In this document: positions 29,509 through 39,196 of the stretch, in pieces
How positions within the stretch are numbered: the first letter of the stretch is position 1
Layout of the letters: every line of letters starts with the position of its first letter
DNA from: Escherichia phage JEP7
Sequence record: MT764207.1
Reading direction: 5' to 3' (one strand)
DNA: 52,936 nucleotides
Translations under genes and position numbers: made by a program
Notes under the pieces: generated by a model
What the model saw: only the letters and a program-made list of their open reading frames with translations
Told to the model about the DNA's origin: nothing
Databases searched by the model: none

Positions 29509-30393
29509 TTATACGGCCATTTGTAGTTTGATGTTTGGCATTGGTTTGTACTTCTCAACCATTGGCGTAACATCGGCAGGAGTGAAGTCAAACACTGACA
29601 CGTCGTAAATTGCGTTAATGTCAGGACGACCTTCAAAGTTAGTGTCCAGTGTAGTATCAGAATTGCTTACGATACGTTGCAGGAAAATCTTTGCAGCATC
29701 GATATGATTCTGATAGATGTGATAGTCACCCAGCGTAACAGTCATATCACCTACCCCAGTACCCAGCTCAGCAGCAATGGTAATCTGCAGCATTTGATGC
29801 AACAGAATATCGTGAGGCAGACCCAGAATAACATCCGCGCTACGCATGTGGAACATCAGCTCTAATTCATTGCGGTTGTTAATGAACAGCTGAAAACCAT
29901 GGTAACAAGGCGGAAGGGCCATGGCGTCCATCTCTTGTGGGTTCCATGCCGTAATGTATGCCCGGCGGTCAGTAGGCTTAACCTTCAGCGTTTCAATAAC
30001 ATCTTTAAGCTGGTTAGTAAGAACACCATTCTTGTAGAATGGCTTAATCCATTGCACGCCGTACACAGGACCTAAGTCACGGTTGTCTGGCGTACCCCAG
30101 CGTTTGTTTGCGTCCTGCAGGTTACCTTCCCACCAGTTGCAGCCAAAGCCTTTGAGCGTGTCGACGTTTGAAATACCGTTGATAAAGCAGTAAAGCTCAG
30201 CAGCAACAGCTTTGATGTTAACAGGTTTAAACACCGGCACCATCAGTTTGTTGTCGTTAAAAGCCAGCTTAAATGCTGTACCAAAACAACGGCGTGTACC
30301 AACACCTGTACGGTCTACAACATCCTCGCCTTTACGCAGGATAAAAGAAATGATGTCGCTGTAAAGAGAATCGACAGTGCTATATGTTTTCAT
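29509..30393 (-). CDS. thymidylate synthase-fold enzyme with Asn-to-Asp at the pyrimidine specificity position (putative dCMP C5-hydroxymethylase or -methylase)
   Basis: 294 aa; by-eye alignment to E. coli ThyA across DRTGVGT, DLGPVYGVQW, RRAYITAWNP, ALPPC (catalytic Cys163, codon 29905-29907), RSADVILGLPHD, GDYHIYQNH; residue matching ThyA Asn177 is Asp195 (codon 29809-29811). Confidence 0.85.
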   Translation of the reverse strand: MKTYSTVDSLYSDIISFILRKGEDVVDRTGVGTRRCFGTAFKLAFNDNKLMVPVFKPVNIKAVAAELYCFINGISNVDTLKGFGCNWWEGNLQDANKRWGTPDNRDLGPVYGVQWIKPFYKNGVLTNQLKDVIETLKVKPTDRRAYITAWNPQEMDAMALPPCYHGFQLFINNRNELELMFHMRSADVILGLPHDILLHQMLQITIAAELGTGVGDMTVTLGDYHIYQNHIDAAKIFLQRIVSNSDTTLDTNFEGRPDINAIYDVSVFDFTPADVTPMVEKYKPMPNIKLQMAV

Positions 30394-30986
30394 TAAAACA
30401 GTTCCTTTTGAGCCGGGTTAACGTGTGCGTCGATGATGGCCTGGATGTCAGGTGCTTTCCATCCTTCAGGCTTAACAATATCCTGACCAGACTTATGCTT
30501 ACTGTTGCTTGCATCAGGCTTAGCACGTTCTTTCGCCATGTTAGCAACTTGTACCGCATCCCATGCTGCGTCGAGTGGCCAGTTGTTGTTTGCACACCAG
30601 GTAATCAGGTGGATAATTAACTGGGCCAGACGGTCGCAATGAGTGTCTTCAGTATCCTTAACGTATACAATAAGGCCGTCAGCATCGAAGCGGTCCATAA
30701 ATCCGCATGGCGTAGTTAACAGAATCGGATACTCAAATTCGTTGGTGAACCATGCAGTCTGGTCATACAGATATAACGTACCTGCAGCAATGTAAATTAA
30801 ATCTACAATACCGTCTAAGAATCCAGCTTTATCGCCGTCCTTCTTAGCTTGTTTAATTTCTTCCATCTCCTCAATAAGACGGTCATAGCGAAGCTTGAAC
30901 TCAGGTTTACCGCCTTGACTAACAGGCTTGAGGTCAAACTTCTCATGAAAAGCGGTAACGCCTGCAGCAATTTTACTGAATCGCAT
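30393..30986 (-). CDS. MazG-like nucleoside triphosphate pyrophosphohydrolase (putative)
   Basis: 197 aa; acidic helical segment RLIEEMEEIKQAKKDGDKAGFLDGIVDLIYIAAG resembling the EExxE...D metal-binding helices of all-alpha NTP pyrophosphatases; AGGAG RBS. Confidence 0.45.
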   Translation of the reverse strand: MRFSKIAAGVTAFHEKFDLKPVSQGGKPEFKLRYDRLIEEMEEIKQAKKDGDKAGFLDGIVDLIYIAAGTLYLYDQTAWFTNEFEYPILLTTPCGFMDRFDADGLIVYVKDTEDTHCDRLAQLIIHLITWCANNNWPLDAAWDAVQVANMAKERAKPDASNSKHKSGQDIVKPEGWKAPDIQAIIDAHVNPAQKELF

Positions 30987-31371
30987 TTCGTAACTCCTTA
31001 CAAACAGTTTCGATAAACTTACGCTTAATTTCTGTAGACCAGATAATATGACGAGCCTGTTCTAAAGTGTCCCAACGTTCTTTACCCACAGGAAAGGGAA
31101 CAATGAAAAGGCCGGTACGGGATATGCGCTTGATAAACGGGAATTTACAGCGCATGGTTGTTTCAAACTTGATAAAGTTGGTTTGCACTTCGCGTGTAAA
31201 CTTGACCTTATCAAATTCATGTTCAAGAGTTTGAGCAAGGTTGCATACTTCCTGGAAAGAAGATGTGGGTAAATAATCTTCGCGGCCGACGGTGTTCACG
31301 TAGTCGATTTGGCCTTCGAGTCGAAGTATCCAAATCCTGTAATAAGCTTCAGCAACACGTTGTAGGTTCAT
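30973..31371 (-). CDS. hypothetical protein
   Basis: 132 aa; GAGGAGAG RBS; first gene downstream of promoter at 31398-31426. Confidence 0.3.
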   Translation of the reverse strand: MNLQRVAEAYYRIWILRLEGQIDYVNTVGREDYLPTSSFQEVCNLAQTLEHEFDKVKFTREVQTNFIKFETTMRCKFPFIKRISRTGLFIVPFPVGKERWDTLEQARHIIWSTEIKRKFIETVCKELRNAIQ

Positions 31372-31397: not shown

Positions 31398-31426
31398 ATT
31401 ATACCACATCACTCTCTAGTGGTAAA
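31398..31426 (-). promoter_or_regulatory. promoter with TTTACC -35 and extended -10 (TGgTATAAT), CCAC/GTGG dyad in spacer
   Basis: minus-strand reading CTTTACCACTAGAGAGTGATGTGGTATAAT; 17-nt spacer. Confidence 0.5.
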
Positions 31427-31453
31427 GCACTTTTTACGCTTCTGGTAAAAATA

Positions 31454-31482
31454 AAAAGGACCAGCGTTAACTGGTCCTTTTG
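31454..31482 (-). terminator. rho-independent terminator (minus-strand orientation)
   Basis: GGACCAG-CGTTAA-CTGGTCC stem-loop with A-run on + strand, i.e. hairpin followed by TTTTTATTTTT on the minus strand. Confidence 0.6.
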
Positions 31483-32047
31483 GCAGGGTGGCGTAAGGAG
31501 ATACAAGGCATCATAACTATGCAACCAGGCAGCGCATATGAGATTGGCCAAAAGATTTACCATTTTAATCCCCGCGACGAGACGAAAGGAGGTGCCATCA
31601 AGTAGCCAATCACATATGCGTTACTTGCTGTGTGCTCTCACCGCGGAAAGTATAGAGCGTTGCACTTATCACACCGATGGAGTGGCAAAAGCACACAGCA
31701 AGTACAACCTTAGTTGTGGTGTCTTAGCACCTGAGTTATTGTGGATAACCTGCACCCGACGGGTGTCAAAAAGATACGCCAAAACACCACAACTAAAATT
31801 GTGACCGCCGTCTACACCAGGCGCCTGGGGTCAAGGTAGCGAGCCAATACCCTTTTCAGCGTCGGAGGAATCGAACCTCACACATCACGGCTTTTACCAA
31901 ATCTCGGTCAGCGAGCAGAATTGAACTGCATTCACTGGACACCCTCACTGTTTCAACACACCAGGCTTAATTGATTGTTGATAAGAAGAGAGATGTAAGG
32001 ATGTCCATTGAATGCACCTCCGTAGAGGTGCGTTCAGATCAGCGCTA
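31483..32047 (-). ncRNA. candidate structured non-coding RNA / long 3' UTR
   Basis: about 570 nt without a credible ORF between the stop of 32048-32515 and the terminator; contains nested inverted repeats (CTTAGTTGTGGTGT ... ACACCACAACTAA enclosing CACCC-GAC-GGGTG), a 12-bp palindrome CCAGGCGCCTGG and a tRNA T-arm-like GAGGTTCGATTCCTC on the minus strand. Confidence 0.3.
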
Positions 32048-32515
32048 TTATTCAGCAACTTCTTCGTTGTCGCCTTCGATCGCGCCAGCCAGTTTAGCAG
32101 CTTCAGCTTTAGCAGCTTCTGCTTTCTGGCGAGCTTTTTCAGCTTTCTCTTCAGCTTTGCGAATCTGCTCAGCAGCTTTCGCTTCGGCTTTTTCAGCTTT
32201 GATGCGAGCACGCTCTTCAGCTTTACGCTGTTTTTCAGCGGCTTTAGCAGCATCGCGTTCTGCTTTAGCGGTATCAACACGCTTAGCCAGAACTTTACCA
32301 GTGGCTTTACGCCAGTAGGTCAGCTGGGAAGAAACAGTACCACGGGACATTTCGGTAGTGGCAACAACTTCGTCCATAACGTCAGAGCTGGACTTGCCTT
32401 CTTCATGGGCTTTATCAGCCAGGTCCCATACGTAACGTGCGCCAGTACCAGCTGCCGGATACAGTACGCCGTTAACTTCTTCTTTACCAGTTACAAAAGT
32501 CAGTTTCTCGCTCAT
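32048..32515 (-). CDS. Lys/Ala/Glu-repeat protein (histone H1-like, putative DNA-binding)
   Basis: ATG 32515 with GAGGA RBS; C-terminal third is KAAEK/AEKA low-complexity repeats; codon choice typical of highly expressed genes. Confidence 0.4.
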   Translation of the reverse strand: MSEKLTFVTGKEEVNGVLYPAAGTGARYVWDLADKAHEEGKSSSDVMDEVVATTEMSRGTVSSQLTYWRKATGKVLAKRVDTAKAERDAAKAAEKQRKAEERARIKAEKAEAKAAEQIRKAEEKAEKARQKAEAAKAEAAKLAGAIEGDNEEVAE

Positions 32516-32621
32516 AATTTTTTCCTCGTCTACAGGGCTTAATGTTTGTTCGTTACGTGAGTTAATATACGTCATTTAAAAGAGTGTGTAAACACCTTTT
32601 TTAAACTTTTTTCATTAGTGT

Positions 32622-32849
32622 CTAGAAAGGCACATCATAGTCAAAAAGTTTACATCCGGAAGACAGGACTGCCGGCGGTGGTGTTTTGCCTCCGGATAAT
32701 AGACAACCTCCTGCCTGAAAACTACGGCAGTTCGCACAGCTCATATCCTGCAGGTATATAATAAGCTGCCGGCGAACATGCCGTGGTAAAGCTTTAGCTT
32801 GGGTAGCTACCCGTTCAAATAGTTCTCTGTCATCGAGCGCCATAGCCAT
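32622..32849 (-). CDS. hypothetical small Cys-containing protein
   Basis: 75 aa ORF overlapping the helicase 3' end; weak call. Confidence 0.25.
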   Translation of the reverse strand: MAMALDDRELFERVATQAKALPRHVRRQLIIYLQDMSCANCRSFQAGGCLLSGGKTPPPAVLSSGCKLFDYDVPF

Positions 32850-34558: not shown

Positions 34559-35437
34559 TTATTTTAAGGAAAGTTTAACGGGCTTCTCATCCTGCGGGAA
34601 GACATCAGCAGGGCGATAATCATCACAAGCTGCTAATTGCTCTTCGAGTGTTTCGAGTTCTTTCTGGTGCTTGTTGCAGTACCACACTTTGCCCTGGAGC
34701 GGTTTACTGTAATGGCAGGTTCTGCAGTTCCTGTCTGGCATTGCTCCTTTGTGGCACAGGTGATGGTATTCGCACATCCCTGGTTTGCACTCCCACCAAA
34801 TAGGCGATTCAGAAATCTTCGGCATATCCAAACCAGATTCCGCATATACAACAGCCTCCGCTTTACTCAGTTGTATGTCGCTTTCCAGTAAGTCAATCTC
34901 GACCACCTCAAAATACATCTCGTCGGTGTTCTTGTTGATTGCGATGTACACAGCTTGATTCAGCTTAAGCTTCCGCATGTATACCTGCATCTGGGCATAG
35001 TGTACCGGCTTACTTGCTTTAACAGACTTGAGCTTGACTAACTCTTTAAACGACTTATCGCCATGCGTCTTGAATTCAGCAAGTGCCCATACGCCTTTGT
35101 ATTTAATTACACAGTCACAAGACCCAGAGAAGATGTCATTGAATTCGTGTATGCGCCATTGCTTACCAGTCTTGGGATTGACGTCCAGCACCTCATCACA
35201 TACGGAACGAAGCCACTTTACAATTCTGCTTTCTTCAAGGTTACCTCGCTCAAACAGACGAAGTTGCTTAGCTGTAAACTTCTCCTTGAACGACCAGTGC
35301 AGAACGTGCCAAAGATAGCGATAGCAGTTGTGCCCTATCTGCGATGCTCCAAGATGCCCGCGTCGTTCTTCTCTTTCGTGGGCTTCGACTATCTTGATGT
35401 CAATACGTTTCTGCAGGTCGTCAAACGGACTTGGCAT
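34559..35437 (-). CDS. PD-(D/E)XK exonuclease (Cas4/RecB-nuclease-like) with C-terminal Cys cluster
   Basis: ATG 35437 with GAGGAG RBS; D...EFK motif (DCVIKYKGVWALAEFKTHGD); C-terminal CKPGMC...C..C....C cysteine cluster. Confidence 0.5.
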   Translation of the reverse strand: MPSPFDDLQKRIDIKIVEAHEREERRGHLGASQIGHNCYRYLWHVLHWSFKEKFTAKQLRLFERGNLEESRIVKWLRSVCDEVLDVNPKTGKQWRIHEFNDIFSGSCDCVIKYKGVWALAEFKTHGDKSFKELVKLKSVKASKPVHYAQMQVYMRKLKLNQAVYIAINKNTDEMYFEVVEIDLLESDIQLSKAEAVVYAESGLDMPKISESPIWWECKPGMCEYHHLCHKGAMPDRNCRTCHYSKPLQGKVWYCNKHQKELETLEEQLAACDDYRPADVFPQDEKPVKLSLK

Positions 35438-35906
35438 TGTTAAACTCCTCAACGCTGAATTCATCGTACACAATATTATGAGCCCACAAATGAGCGACGG
35501 CGTTTGCCATACTGTCTTTCCATTTGGATTGTGAAGCTGTATGAGCCAATGCAACTACACGAACCAGGTTAAGGTTGGCTATCAGCATATCTGCACAATG
35601 TTCGCACGGCGGGTAGGTTATGTAGATGGTAACCGGGCCTAAAGAAGGAGTGTCTAACTCACTCCTTATATTAGCTAAGGTATTTATCTCGCTATGAATA
35701 GTTAGAGCGTTCTTGAGGCTATTAGGCACTATTCTTATAGAGTCTAGCTGCGTAGGTAAGCCGTTATATCCAGTGGAAATAATACGCTTGTTCTGGTCCA
35801 CAAGAACACTACCGACTTGACGTTTCGGGTCCTTTGACCAGCTTGCAACTTCACAAGCTATGCGCATAAACCGCTTGTCCCACTTGTCCATCTTCTTCTT
35901 TTGCAT
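35421..35906 (-). CDS. dCMP deaminase (cytidine/deoxycytidylate deaminase family)
   Basis: 161 aa; zinc-binding motifs HSEINT and PCEHC. Confidence 0.85.
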   Translation of the reverse strand: MQKKKMDKWDKRFMRIACEVASWSKDPKRQVGSVLVDQNKRIISTGYNGLPTQLDSIRIVPNSLKNALTIHSEINTLANIRSELDTPSLGPVTIYITYPPCEHCADMLIANLNLVRVVALAHTASQSKWKDSMANAVAHLWAHNIVYDEFSVEEFNNAKSV

Positions 35907-35925
35907 GGTAGTCTCCGTATACGAA

Positions 35926-35945
35926 AATAGGGGCCGAAGCCCCTA
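35926..35945 (-). terminator. GGGGC-UUCG-GCCCC hairpin (possible terminator/attenuator)
   Basis: minus-strand hairpin GGGGCTTCGGCCCC followed by TATTTTCG, between SSB-like gene stop and dCMP deaminase start. Confidence 0.4.
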
Positions 35946-35967
35946 TTGAATATCTACTCGGCAGGGA

Positions 35968-36513
35968 TTACTCTTCCCAAGGAGCTGCTTCACCACCATC
36001 AGTACCAGGTGCCGTTGCAGTAGCACTCCCCTTCATTGAAGTACCCGCACCTGCACCTACTTTCTTCGTCGTCGATGCAGTTGCTTGAGACTGACCGCCT
36101 ACTGCAGTAGTTGCTTCAGTTGACGCTTTGTATTCGCGAATATCGTTTTGTGGGTCGTATTCACCGGTCTTGTCGATACGAACACCAACTTTACCGGCTA
36201 CAATACGGTTTTCCAGTAAGTCGGTAGAAGTCAGTTCAACAATACCCAGCGCACGACACAACGCAGACAGTTTGCGATGACCGATTTCAACAGCTTGTGC
36301 ATTAGGGTTGGAGTAGGTAATCATGTCAAATACAACACGGTTAGCGAACTCACCTTCCTGCACTTTCAGACGCAGGGACAGGTAAGAACCAGTGCCTGCT
36401 TTAGTCGGCTTCAGCTCAACCTCTTCAATCATGAAGTTGTACCAGCCTTTCGGGATAGGGTCAAAAGACTGTTGCGGTTCGACGGTAGAGCTGTTGAAGT
36501 TTAATTCAGCCAT
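35968..36513 (-). CDS. putative ssDNA-binding protein
   Basis: 181 aa; Gly/Ala/Thr-rich flexible C-terminal region ending in acidic tail (APWEE); adjacent to RecA-like ATPase; weak call. Confidence 0.3.
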   Translation of the reverse strand: MAELNFNSSTVEPQQSFDPIPKGWYNFMIEEVELKPTKAGTGSYLSLRLKVQEGEFANRVVFDMITYSNPNAQAVEIGHRKLSALCRALGIVELTSTDLLENRIVAGKVGVRIDKTGEYDPQNDIREYKASTEATTAVGGQSQATASTTKKVGAGAGTSMKGSATATAPGTDGGEAAPWEE

Positions 36514-38290: not shown

Positions 38291-39196
38291 TTACAGCAGT
38301 TCTGCTTTCAGCGCAGCGATACCATCGAGCAATGCTTTGATGTCCGGGTTAGATGCCGCCAGGTCAGCAACAACTGACTGACGACGACGTTCCAGCTCTT
38401 TCTCAACTTCCAGGTCGAGTCGTGCTGACGCTTCACGCAGTAAGTCTTCAACCTGCTGACGACGCTGATACTTGTTAAAGTCAGGCACATCAACCAGCCA
38501 TTTGAGAGTTGCAGTGTTATAGCCGGAAGTATTGGCTGCACTTACAGACACAACATCAACGAGCTTGGTACCGTTCAGCTCCGGATAATTAACATTGCGA
38601 ACGTCAACAACTGCTTTGTCACCTACACTTACTTTGCCGATGTACTTGTAAGTGTACACACGACCATTCGGTTCAAACTTAACACCAACAAACTTCAGTT
38701 TGTCGTCTGCAATAACCTCTTCCTCAACTTTGAAGTTGATTGCAGTATTCTTAACAGGTGCAGCCGCTTTGAGCTTAGCAACCATGTACTGTTCGGAATG
38801 AGACGGACGGCACAGACGGAAGACGTCTTCATTGTAGGTCAGCCAGTTACCGGTCTCATCCATGCATGCAATCTGATTAGTGCCATCCAGCGAACGAACG
38901 CCCGGGCGATTCTTCTCAACACGATACAGCTTACCTTCTTTCAGGTTAGCATAAGAACGGCGGGCGATACCCCAGTTGTGTTTTTCAGATTCATACTTAG
39001 CGAAACGGTCAACACTGAAGTTCTGCTTCAGGCCACGGTCGTCGATTACCCATAAGTTATCGTAAGCCCCGCAAAAAGAACCTAGGTTGGCATACACTTT
39101 GCCCTGCGTCAACAGGGAAGTGGTTCCCTCGTCAACACAGATAACAAAACCCAGAGCTTCGTGTGCTTTACCGCTGCGGTCAAATACTGTAGTCAT
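38291..39196 (-). CDS. hypothetical protein
   Basis: 301 aa; AAGGAAAC RBS; coiled-coil C-terminus. Confidence 0.3.
   Translation of the reverse strand: MTTVFDRSGKAHEALGFVICVDEGTTSLLTQGKVYANLGSFCGAYDNLWVIDDRGLKQNFSVDRFAKYESEKHNWGIARRSYANLKEGKLYRVEKNRPGVRSLDGTNQIACMDETGNWLTYNEDVFRLCRPSHSEQYMVAKLKAAAPVKNTAINFKVEEEVIADDKLKFVGVKFEPNGRVYTYKYIGKVSVGDKAVVDVRNVNYPELNGTKLVDVVSVSAANTSGYNTATLKWLVDVPDFNKYQRRQQVEDLLREASARLDLEVEKELERRRQSVVADLAASNPDIKALLDGIAALKAELL

Follow-up and report, generated by a model that had tools for sequence, protein, structure and literature searches.

Downstream of a superfamily 2 (SF2) helicase gene, the genome of Escherichia phage JEP7 (sequence record MT764207.1) encodes a small protein of 155 amino acids (aa) that ends in a long Lys/Ala/Glu-rich segment, and the question raised by this locus is what a phage would do with such a product. 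The window analysed here is the whole stretch of 52,936 nucleotides (nt), and the open reading frame (ORF) in question occupies positions 32048..32515 on its minus strand. The first-pass annotation of this DNA had described a highly expressed-looking protein with a histone H1-like tail, which could compact or shield the phage DNA. Our results retain the first part of that description and replace the second: an abundant, DNA-associated role is plausible, and would then be exerted through an N-terminal helix-turn-helix (HTH)-like domain rather than through the tail. Tentatively, and at somewhat less than even chances, we favour a stoichiometric, non-virion protein of the replication module that would act on phage double-stranded DNA (dsDNA) in an architectural or adaptor role.

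The reading frame runs from an ATG at 32515-32513 to a TAA at 32050-32048, and the Lys/Ala/Glu tail quoted in the earlier annotation was found in it verbatim. The ribosome-binding site proposed there could also be read from the sequence, as a Shine-Dalgarno GAGGA (32523..32527, minus strand) placed 7 nt 5' of the start codon. Further upstream, a consensus scan identified a sigma-70-type promoter, TTTACA-17 nt-TATATT (32564..32592, minus strand; 10/12 matches), which is also annotated in phage BP63 and is kept in the aligned relatives. Directly upstream of its -35 box lies an A-tract, GAAAAAAGTTTAAAAAAGG (32595..32613, minus strand), nearly invariant in the aligned phages fHy-Eco03, S144 and SOI901, which may act as an UP element. 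An alternative 175-aa product, annotated in some records from ATG 32575, is unlikely: no Shine-Dalgarno sequence precedes that start, which falls 5' of the predicted -10 box, and relatives do not keep the extra residues in frame. Two antisense ORFs on the plus strand, at 32012..32542 (176 aa) and 31971..32318 (115 aa), were rejected as genes, as they are Ser/Phe/Ala/Leu-rich by-products of a coding strand with GCN/AAA/GAA periodicity; one exceeds the real ORF in length, which can lead astray gene callers that go by length.

The genome is that of a Rosemountvirus, a BP63-like myovirus, and across this region identity to many Salmonella and E. coli phages is 99.0-99.5%; over the 1.1 kb compared, it was 99.4% to vB_EcoM_PiR (OM313461) and 99.5% to PA13076. 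The coding sequence corresponds to BP63_59, fHy-Eco03 gp60 and S144 ORF48. It is already present in databases as a "hypothetical protein", the annotation in all the records seen (BP63_59, zoltan_37, UNY42534), its sole PHROG match is phrog_28664, of unknown function (E 6e-99), and nothing was found published on its function. What is new here is the domain family, the protein architecture, the position beside DNA-modification genes, the consistent extreme codon adaptation, and the reuse of the domain in packaged effectors.

Codon adaptation indices (CAI) were computed for about 65 ORFs of the window with the E. coli weights of Sharp & Li. The JEP7 gene ranked at the top with 0.759, the median being 0.312 (standard deviation 0.10), followed by the genes for the Gp13-like major capsid protein (0.720), the DUF669 protein resembling single-stranded DNA-binding proteins (SSB-like; 0.544), a 301-aa protein (0.521), and the DUF3383 sheath-like protein (0.492); the capsid, SSB-like and tail sheath proteins among these next-ranked products are all stoichiometric. 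A high index as an artefact of Lys/Glu/Ala richness was rejected, because the rank survives removal of these codons: without all of them the gene was still first, its 74 remaining codons giving 0.775 where the median was 0.270. Codon choice was uniform, using CTG for 6/6 Leu, CGT or CGC for 10/10 Arg, and GGT or GGC for 9/9 Gly. The claim of a codon choice typical of abundant proteins thus holds independently of Lys/Glu/Ala content, and the top index of the genome, together with the near-consensus promoter, the conserved A-tract and the strong Shine-Dalgarno sequence, supports the description of the gene as highly expressed-looking. Furthermore, in every lineage checked (six phages) the member of the family described below was a local outlier, with values of 0.627 in JenK1 (neighbours, 0.24-0.36), 0.541 in Vid5 (0.28-0.38), 0.705 in fHy-Eco03 (0.30-0.44), 0.751 in S144 (0.25-0.43), 0.722 in SOI901 (0.22-0.34), and 0.673 in RF1 (0.37). 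As a separate observation, the 301-aa ORF (38291..39196, minus strand), fourth in the genome ranking, has no Pfam match and adjoins the DUF669 gene, and its product is another candidate abundant replication-module protein.

The comparison with histone H1 concerned the tail, and it is here that the earlier description had to be revised. The low-complexity segment is indeed present, and covers residues 82-146 (32078..32272, minus strand; AlphaFold2 model and composition), that is 42% of the protein and not a third. Its "KAAEK repeats" are no true tandem repeat of the DNA, a possibility rejected on the output of Tandem Repeats Finder, which gave only a 15-nt unit in 2.2 copies. H1-type tails are polycationic and nearly devoid of acidic residues, contain proline, and are disordered. 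Conversely, residues 86-146 (61 aa) of the JEP7 protein comprise 12 Lys, 6 Arg, 12 Glu, 1 Asp, 22 Ala and no Pro, hence 18 basic against 13 acidic residues and a net charge of +5. Over its full length the protein is neutral (net charge 0, isoelectric point 6.7), because an acidic C-terminal tip with net charge -5 cancels the +5 of the tail. This tip, assigned from composition to residues 147-155 (32051..32077, minus strand), is of the IEGDNEEVAE type and ends in Ala-Glu. AlphaFold2, run with a 28-sequence alignment, predicted a single unbroken helix over residues 82-149, with a predicted local distance difference test score (pLDDT) of about 85-91, followed by a low-confidence acidic end. Opposite-charge pairs at i+3/i+4 were enriched in the tail (22 observed versus 14.6 +/- 3.0 in shuffles, P=0.012), and a weak Ala-rich seam was detected at heptad periodicity (P=0.011). 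Tail sequence varies among homologues while composition stays conserved; an acidic run followed by Ala-Glu closes almost every protein of the close subfamily, and among 231 C-termini of the whole family the last 12 residues have a net charge of -2 or lower in 49%, and 74% end in Ala or Glu.

According to the H1-like model, a polycationic Lys/Ala/Glu tail would compact or shield DNA electrostatically, for which the low-complexity Lys/Ala-rich composition, the +5 of the tail taken alone and the apparently high expression of the gene can be invoked. The balance of acidic and basic residues, the lack of Pro, the neutrality of the protein, the stable predicted helix with salt bridges engaging the Lys side chains, and the variable placement of the Ala/Lys/Glu segment in relatives, where it is found N- or C-terminal to the domain or is absent, all oppose this model, which we consider highly improbable. 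The same traits separate the tail from the H1 C-terminal domain, AlgP and Hc1, with which it shares a low-complexity, Lys/Ala-rich character: it is charge-balanced (20% Asp+Glu), has neither Pro nor S/TPKK-type units, and is predicted to be helical, not disordered. Single alpha-helix (ER/K) domains and (EAAAK)n linkers also have a long unbroken helix with enriched i+3/i+4 opposite-charge pairs; unlike ER/K helices, the JEP7 tail has 34% Ala, 48% charged residues and a weak Ala heptad seam, and some relatives carry clear Leu/Ile heptads in the distal tail. Thus, as modelled, the tail is an Ala-rich helix with balanced charges and salt bridges, serving as a stalk or forming a weak coiled coil, and not a disordered polycationic segment of the H1 type.

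The remaining part of the protein is an N-terminal domain (residues 10-75; 32291..32488, minus strand) that is HTH- or winged-helix-like in the AlphaFold2 model, where a beta-hairpin (11-20) is followed by helices at 25-39, 43-53 and 58-72 (helix pLDDT 90-97). The predicted structure has a tri-helical HTH core in an unusual topology, with the hairpin N-terminal to helix 1 and no canonical wing C-terminal to the recognition helix. In family alignments P20 and W30 are invariant and D34, Q64, W68, R69, K70 and G73 nearly so; basic positions in the hairpin and helix 3 are family-wide, and the median domain charge is +3. The JEP7 protein matched no Pfam family at threshold, as did not most relatives, and the weak matches among relatives were all to HTH families (HNH_repeat, KfrA_N, Sigma70_r3/r4, HTH_23, Myb). 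From these, HNH_repeat (PF18780), which the JEP7 protein itself did not match, was matched by 6/56 relatives at E 0.003-1, and one relative (P0064) scored 27.1 bits against a gathering cutoff of 26. Pfam matches to ATP-synt_B, CAF1A_acidic, RR_TM4-6 and similar families were rejected as compositional, and NCBIfam and PADLOC returned coiled-coil noise only (adenylate kinase, PspA, JetC). Foldseek gave no significant match in the PDB, its weak ones being HTH proteins and one peptide-binding winged helix of the RiPP recognition element (RRE) type, and in BFVD it retrieved uncharacterised family members only; searches of the PDB by sequence, whether started from the single protein or from the family profile, yielded low-complexity or chance matches only.

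Two known types of domain resemble this architecture. HNH_repeat and tri-helical HTH domains share the three-helix core and an aromatic-x-x-W-x-x-x-x-G signature, the JEP7 protein differing from HNH_repeat in staying below all Pfam thresholds and in having no solved structure by sequence search; a beta-hairpin combined with an HTH is also found in paired and Tc1-type domains. KfrA of IncP/IncU plasmids is an alpha-helical DNA-binding protein with an N-terminal HTH domain and a long Ala-rich helix, a likeness that was tested here. The JEP7 protein similarly joins a small HTH-type domain to a long Ala-rich helix, with a similar W-R/K signature in helix 3. No match to KfrA_N (PF11740) was found for the JEP7 protein at E <= 1, and among relatives 2/28 and 1/56 matched at E 0.014-0.052, below threshold; on these sub-threshold matches KfrA membership was rejected and the likeness kept as an analogy only. 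The differences are considerable: the tail is 65 aa long (about 250 aa in KfrA) and without a convincing heptad core, having only 3 strong hydrophobic residues at a/d positions besides its weak heptad Ala seam; the JEP7 protein has an N-terminal beta-hairpin and an acidic tip; and its gene follows the helicase in the replication module of a lytic phage, instead of lying in a plasmid partition or central-control region.

The domain of approximately 70 aa defines a family with the signature N-G-V-x-x-P...W-D-x-A-D...Q-x-x-x-W-R-K-x-x-G, which the JEP7 protein fits. Searches with phmmer retrieved 42 relatives, and a profile of the N-terminal domain retrieved 1955 cluster representatives at E <= 1e-3, of which 645 reached E <= 1e-10. 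The family is present in 154 cultured phages, including the genera Seuratvirus, Nonagvirus, Nipunavirus (with Iggy-like phages), Vidquintavirus and Kleczkowskavirus, as well as in phages of Vibrio, Xanthomonas, Stenotrophomonas and other hosts. No member has a Pfam, NCBIfam or PADLOC assignment, and the PHROGs concerned (phrog_28664, 18634, 11298, 21588, 17772 and 7864) are all labelled "unknown". The source names "membrane protein involved in colicin uptake", "sRNA-binding protein", "plectin 1" and "transcriptional activator FtrA" were rejected as artefacts of the Ala/Lys/Glu helix or as unsupported, and the gene is not taken up in the papers on phages Vid5 and R7M. In 74% of 214 single-domain members the domain is flanked, on either side, by 30 aa or more in which Ala+Lys+Glu make up at least 50%; a 105-aa member from Bhz54 has no such segment, and some members have 2-3 tandem domains. 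Two copies also occur in large proteins that combine MuF and ADP-ribosyltransferase domains, in some cases with an HExxH motif (P0049, P0062, P0086, P0156; loci such as L016:6001-8799), one of which is encoded directly after a portal gene; these polyvalent proteins share the domain with the JEP7 protein, which is instead small, stand-alone and encoded in a replication module. Polyvalent phage proteins are thought to be delivered with the DNA and to counter host systems (Iyer et al., 2017; PMC5512222), and from its domain combinations the module appears to be a reusable part of such injected effectors.

An HTH-like fold could belong to a sequence-specific transcription factor, either a middle or late activator or a KfrA-like autoregulator, whose HTH would read an operator and whose helix would dimerise. 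Several GenBank records label relatives "transcriptional activator", a label for which no supporting paper was found; the Leu/Ile heptads of some relatives' distal tails could serve for dimerisation; a 10-nt inverted repeat lies at 32602-32611 and 32643-32652, upstream of the -35 box; and the phage relies on host RNA polymerase, with no known timing regulator besides a DksA-like protein (PMC7432712). However, a site-specific regulator would not usually have a CAI above that of the capsid gene, no heptad window in the clade of the JEP7 protein holds more than 2-3 strong hydrophobic residues (5-6/7 in relatives P0031-P0035), the surroundings of the gene showed no operator-like motif in repeated copies, and the presence of the same domain in injected MuF toxin proteins fits an operator-reading function poorly. 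We therefore regard a regulator as rather unlikely.

The position of the gene is shared well beyond Rosemountvirus. In JEP7 the 155-aa gene is preceded, in this order, by the genes for DUF669, dCMP deaminase, Cas4-like exonuclease and SF2 helicase and by a 75-aa ORF; after it come a non-coding stretch, an ORF of 132 aa, and the genes for a MazG-like protein, ThyA and the polymerase. Nine distant members were sampled, from phages DoCa3 (Xanthomonas), Vid5 (Pantoea), JenK1 (E. coli), Bhz54 (Stenotrophomonas) and RHEph04 (Rhizobium) and from 4 metagenomic contigs; all nine lie after a Cas4-like exonuclease, an SF2 helicase and then 1-5 small ORFs, and immediately or nearly immediately upstream of the 7-deazaguanine genes QueE-QueC-QueD-FolE(-DpdA). 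The exonuclease and helicase of JEP7 are 40% and 38% identical, respectively, to their Bhz54 counterparts, and the Bhz54 family member matches the JEP7 gene directly (E 3e-4), so that the position can be considered orthologous. No Que or DpdA homologues were found in the JEP7 window. The ThyA-family enzyme, the MazG-like pyrophosphohydrolase and the dCMP deaminase (29509-31371 and 34559-36513) are found in the slot of the relatives' 7-deazaguanine cluster, and the DNA of Rosemountvirus and Loughboroughvirus is reported to resist most restriction enzymes (PMC8145870, section 3.2; PMC7432712, section 2.5). Regarding the 75-aa ORF (32622-32849, minus strand), it overlaps the helicase stop codon, contains several Cys residues (C-x-x-C ... 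C ... C) and has no Pfam match; it is conserved, as an ORF of 71-77 aa behind the helicase, in fHy-Eco03, S144, SOI901, SE4 and KM.

Direct evidence that the protein is made comes from fHy-Eco03, whose gp60, annotated as "putative structural protein", was detected by liquid chromatography-tandem mass spectrometry in purified particles with 6 peptides, 8 peptide-spectrum matches (PSMs) and 45% coverage (PMC8145870, Table S6); it is, therefore, a real expressed protein. This detection, and the presence of the domain in head-packaged MuF proteins, would agree with a virion-internal protein packaged with the genome, either in the head or attached to the DNA. The same particle list, however, includes primase/helicase, DNA polymerase, thymidylate synthase, DHFR, terminase and scaffold (PMC8145870, Table S6), and the presence of replication enzymes indicates that the preparation was contaminated with cytoplasmic proteins. 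Furthermore, ORF48 is missing from the 32 proteins of the S144 virion proteome, CsCl-purified R7M virions contained 14 proteins, namely 13 predicted structural ones and ORF28 of the head-tail module, and the gene belongs to the replication module and has an early-type host promoter. On the three proteomes a virion protein was rejected as the main explanation, and we judge it very unlikely: the protein is expressed, yet not convincingly a virion component.

A different proposal is that of a host-takeover or anti-defence factor, whose N-terminal domain would bind an abundant host protein (RNA polymerase, a nucleoid protein or a defence sensor) and titrate it. High expression would suit a titrating decoy, as with Ocr of phage T7. 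Further, the domain of the JEP7 clade is not basic, the best Foldseek match in the PDB is the peptide-binding RRE winged helix, and the domain occurs twice in polyvalent MuF, metallopeptidase-like and ADP-ribosyltransferase proteins (PMC5512222). Conversely, no match was obtained in anti-defence or defence libraries, and the fixed replication-module position across phages of Rhizobium, Vibrio, Pseudomonas, Xanthomonas and E. coli opposes a host-specific target. The fHy-Eco03 orthologue does not appear in the toxicity screen of that phage, from which it was left out because it was classed as particle-associated (PMC8145870). Weighing these points, a takeover factor seems to us rather unlikely.

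Since the protein is expressed, occupies a conserved position, has an HTH-like domain as its likely working part and is not convincingly a virion component, we favour the non-virion, replication-module role stated at the outset. The gene with its expression signals, its extreme codon adaptation, the domain anatomy, the family and the conserved position were established here, and from them we infer that the protein binds DNA and is abundant during infection, as well as what helix and tip do and which biological function results. As we envisage it, the N-terminal domain of about 70 aa would bind dsDNA via helix 3, with its conserved T-x-x-T/S-Q-Y-x-R-W-R-K, and in most relatives the basic hairpin would contact it too; the Ala/Lys/Glu helix of about 65 aa (roughly 10 nm) would probably serve as a rigid spacer and might also mediate weak self-association; and the acidic Ala-Glu tip would contact a partner protein or fold back on basic surfaces, by analogy with SSB tips. 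The protein would thus work stoichiometrically on phage dsDNA during replication and transcription.

Several points weigh against this role. The CAI is a predictor and not a measure of expression, and the fHy-Eco03 orthologue gave only 8 PSMs, although the sample consisted of virions and not of infected cells. The Rosemountvirus-clade domain has net charge 0, with Y19 and A21 where relatives carry Arg and Lys in the hairpin, and a winged-helix-like fold need not bind DNA, given that the top Foldseek match in the PDB is a peptide-binding RRE. Additionally, the conserved position could reflect shared ancestry of the whole module instead of functional coupling, and the literature search found no experiment on any family member; searches for infection transcriptomics or proteomics of Queuovirinae or Rosemountvirus likewise found nothing on the gene.

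Known replication-module proteins offer functional parallels for the proposed role. Phage phi29 p6, SPO1 TF1 and T5 D5 are small, abundant "histone-like" dsDNA-binding proteins of early or middle replication modules, and the DNA of SPO1, the phage of TF1, is modified. The JEP7 protein would be similar to them in coating or organising the viral genome, as proposed by analogy; there is no sequence or fold kinship, TF1 having the HU fold and p6 a fold of its own, and in the JEP7 protein DNA binding is only proposed. On the other hand, SSB proteins such as E. coli SSB, T7 gp2.5 and T4 gp32 consist of a DNA-binding module, a spacer and a short acidic C-terminal tip, and their layout may be likened to that of the JEP7 product, a replication-module protein with a putative binding fold, a spacer and a conserved acidic C-terminus. 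Unlike SSBs, it lacks an oligonucleotide-binding (OB) fold, its tip ends in Ala-Glu and not in an aromatic residue, and the phage already has the DUF669 SSB-like protein.

A bolder proposal, which we hold to be rather unlikely, is that the gene founds a family of super-abundant phage "chromatin" proteins tied to hypermodified DNA, in which the HTH-like domain would coat or mark the genome, the tip would recruit replication or modification enzymes, and the domain would tether injected MuF/ADP-ribosyltransferase effectors to DNA. The modification would then be 7-deazaguanine in Queuovirinae-like phages, and in Rosemountvirus and Loughboroughvirus some form of modification would account for the restriction resistance of the DNA.

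The region 3' of the gene has conserved features of its own. Directly after the stop codon, RNAalifold on six phages identified a stem-loop, GAACGCACCTC-TACG-GAGGTGCATTC (32010..32035, minus strand), with 10 pairs and one compensatory change; it is not a canonical terminator, since it lacks a T-run, and may serve in mRNA 3' stabilisation or processing. A second conserved hairpin (31936..32007, minus strand; inverted repeat I3), with a 13-bp stem and a loop of ~50 nt, has 13 pairs in the same alignment, 3 of them with compensatory changes. It is followed in the same transcription unit by non-coding sequence that contains long hairpins and remnants resembling tRNA T-arms (31482..31935, minus strand), and the whole non-coding interval of ~570 nt (31482-32047, minus strand) holds T-arm-like remnants such as GAGGTTCGATTCCTC and GCAGTTCAATTCTGC, and four long inverted repeats. 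ARAGORN and Rfam detected no tRNA or known non-coding RNA in the JEP7 window; at the corresponding position Erwinia phage SOI901 has intact tRNA-Pro and tRNA-Gln. Judging from these remnants, the interval resembles a tRNA array that has decayed or been remodelled, is transcribed together with the gene and may form a structured RNA. The first canonical terminator 3' of the gene is an intrinsic hairpin, AAAAGGACCAG..CTGGTCCTTTT, with a T-run (31454..31481, minus strand), whose stem is invariant across 8 phages; fHy-Eco03, SOI901 and KM show a compensatory variant of it. Given this distal terminator and the SOI901 tRNAs in the slot, the strong promoter probably once drove, or still drives, a unit of gene plus tRNAs. 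The promoter of the next gene (31398-31430, minus strand), AAAAAGTGCTTTACC-N-TGTGGTATAAT, is almost invariant in 8 phages, including an extended block upstream of the -35 box, and GCTTTACCAC is found again at 32783-32792, within the end of the helicase gene; judged by this repetition, the two may represent a phage-specific promoter class.

If the favoured role is correct, the most codon-adapted gene of Rosemountviruses, phages widely proposed for the biocontrol of Salmonella and E. coli, would encode an uncharacterised DNA-associated protein, and the same would apply to the equivalent genes of Seuratvirus, Nonagvirus, Nipunavirus, Vidquintavirus, Kleczkowskavirus and many uncultured phages. 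The domain of ~70 aa has no Pfam or NCBIfam entry despite its ~2000 cluster representatives, and its fixed slot between helicase and DNA-hypermodification genes, together with its reuse in effectors, makes it a cheap and specific target for study. Even if the function proves mundane, the present characterization corrects the mis-annotations "H1-like", "TolA-like", "plectin" and "transcriptional activator" prompted by the low-complexity helix, and study of this gene could reveal how such phages organise, replicate or protect their modified genomes.

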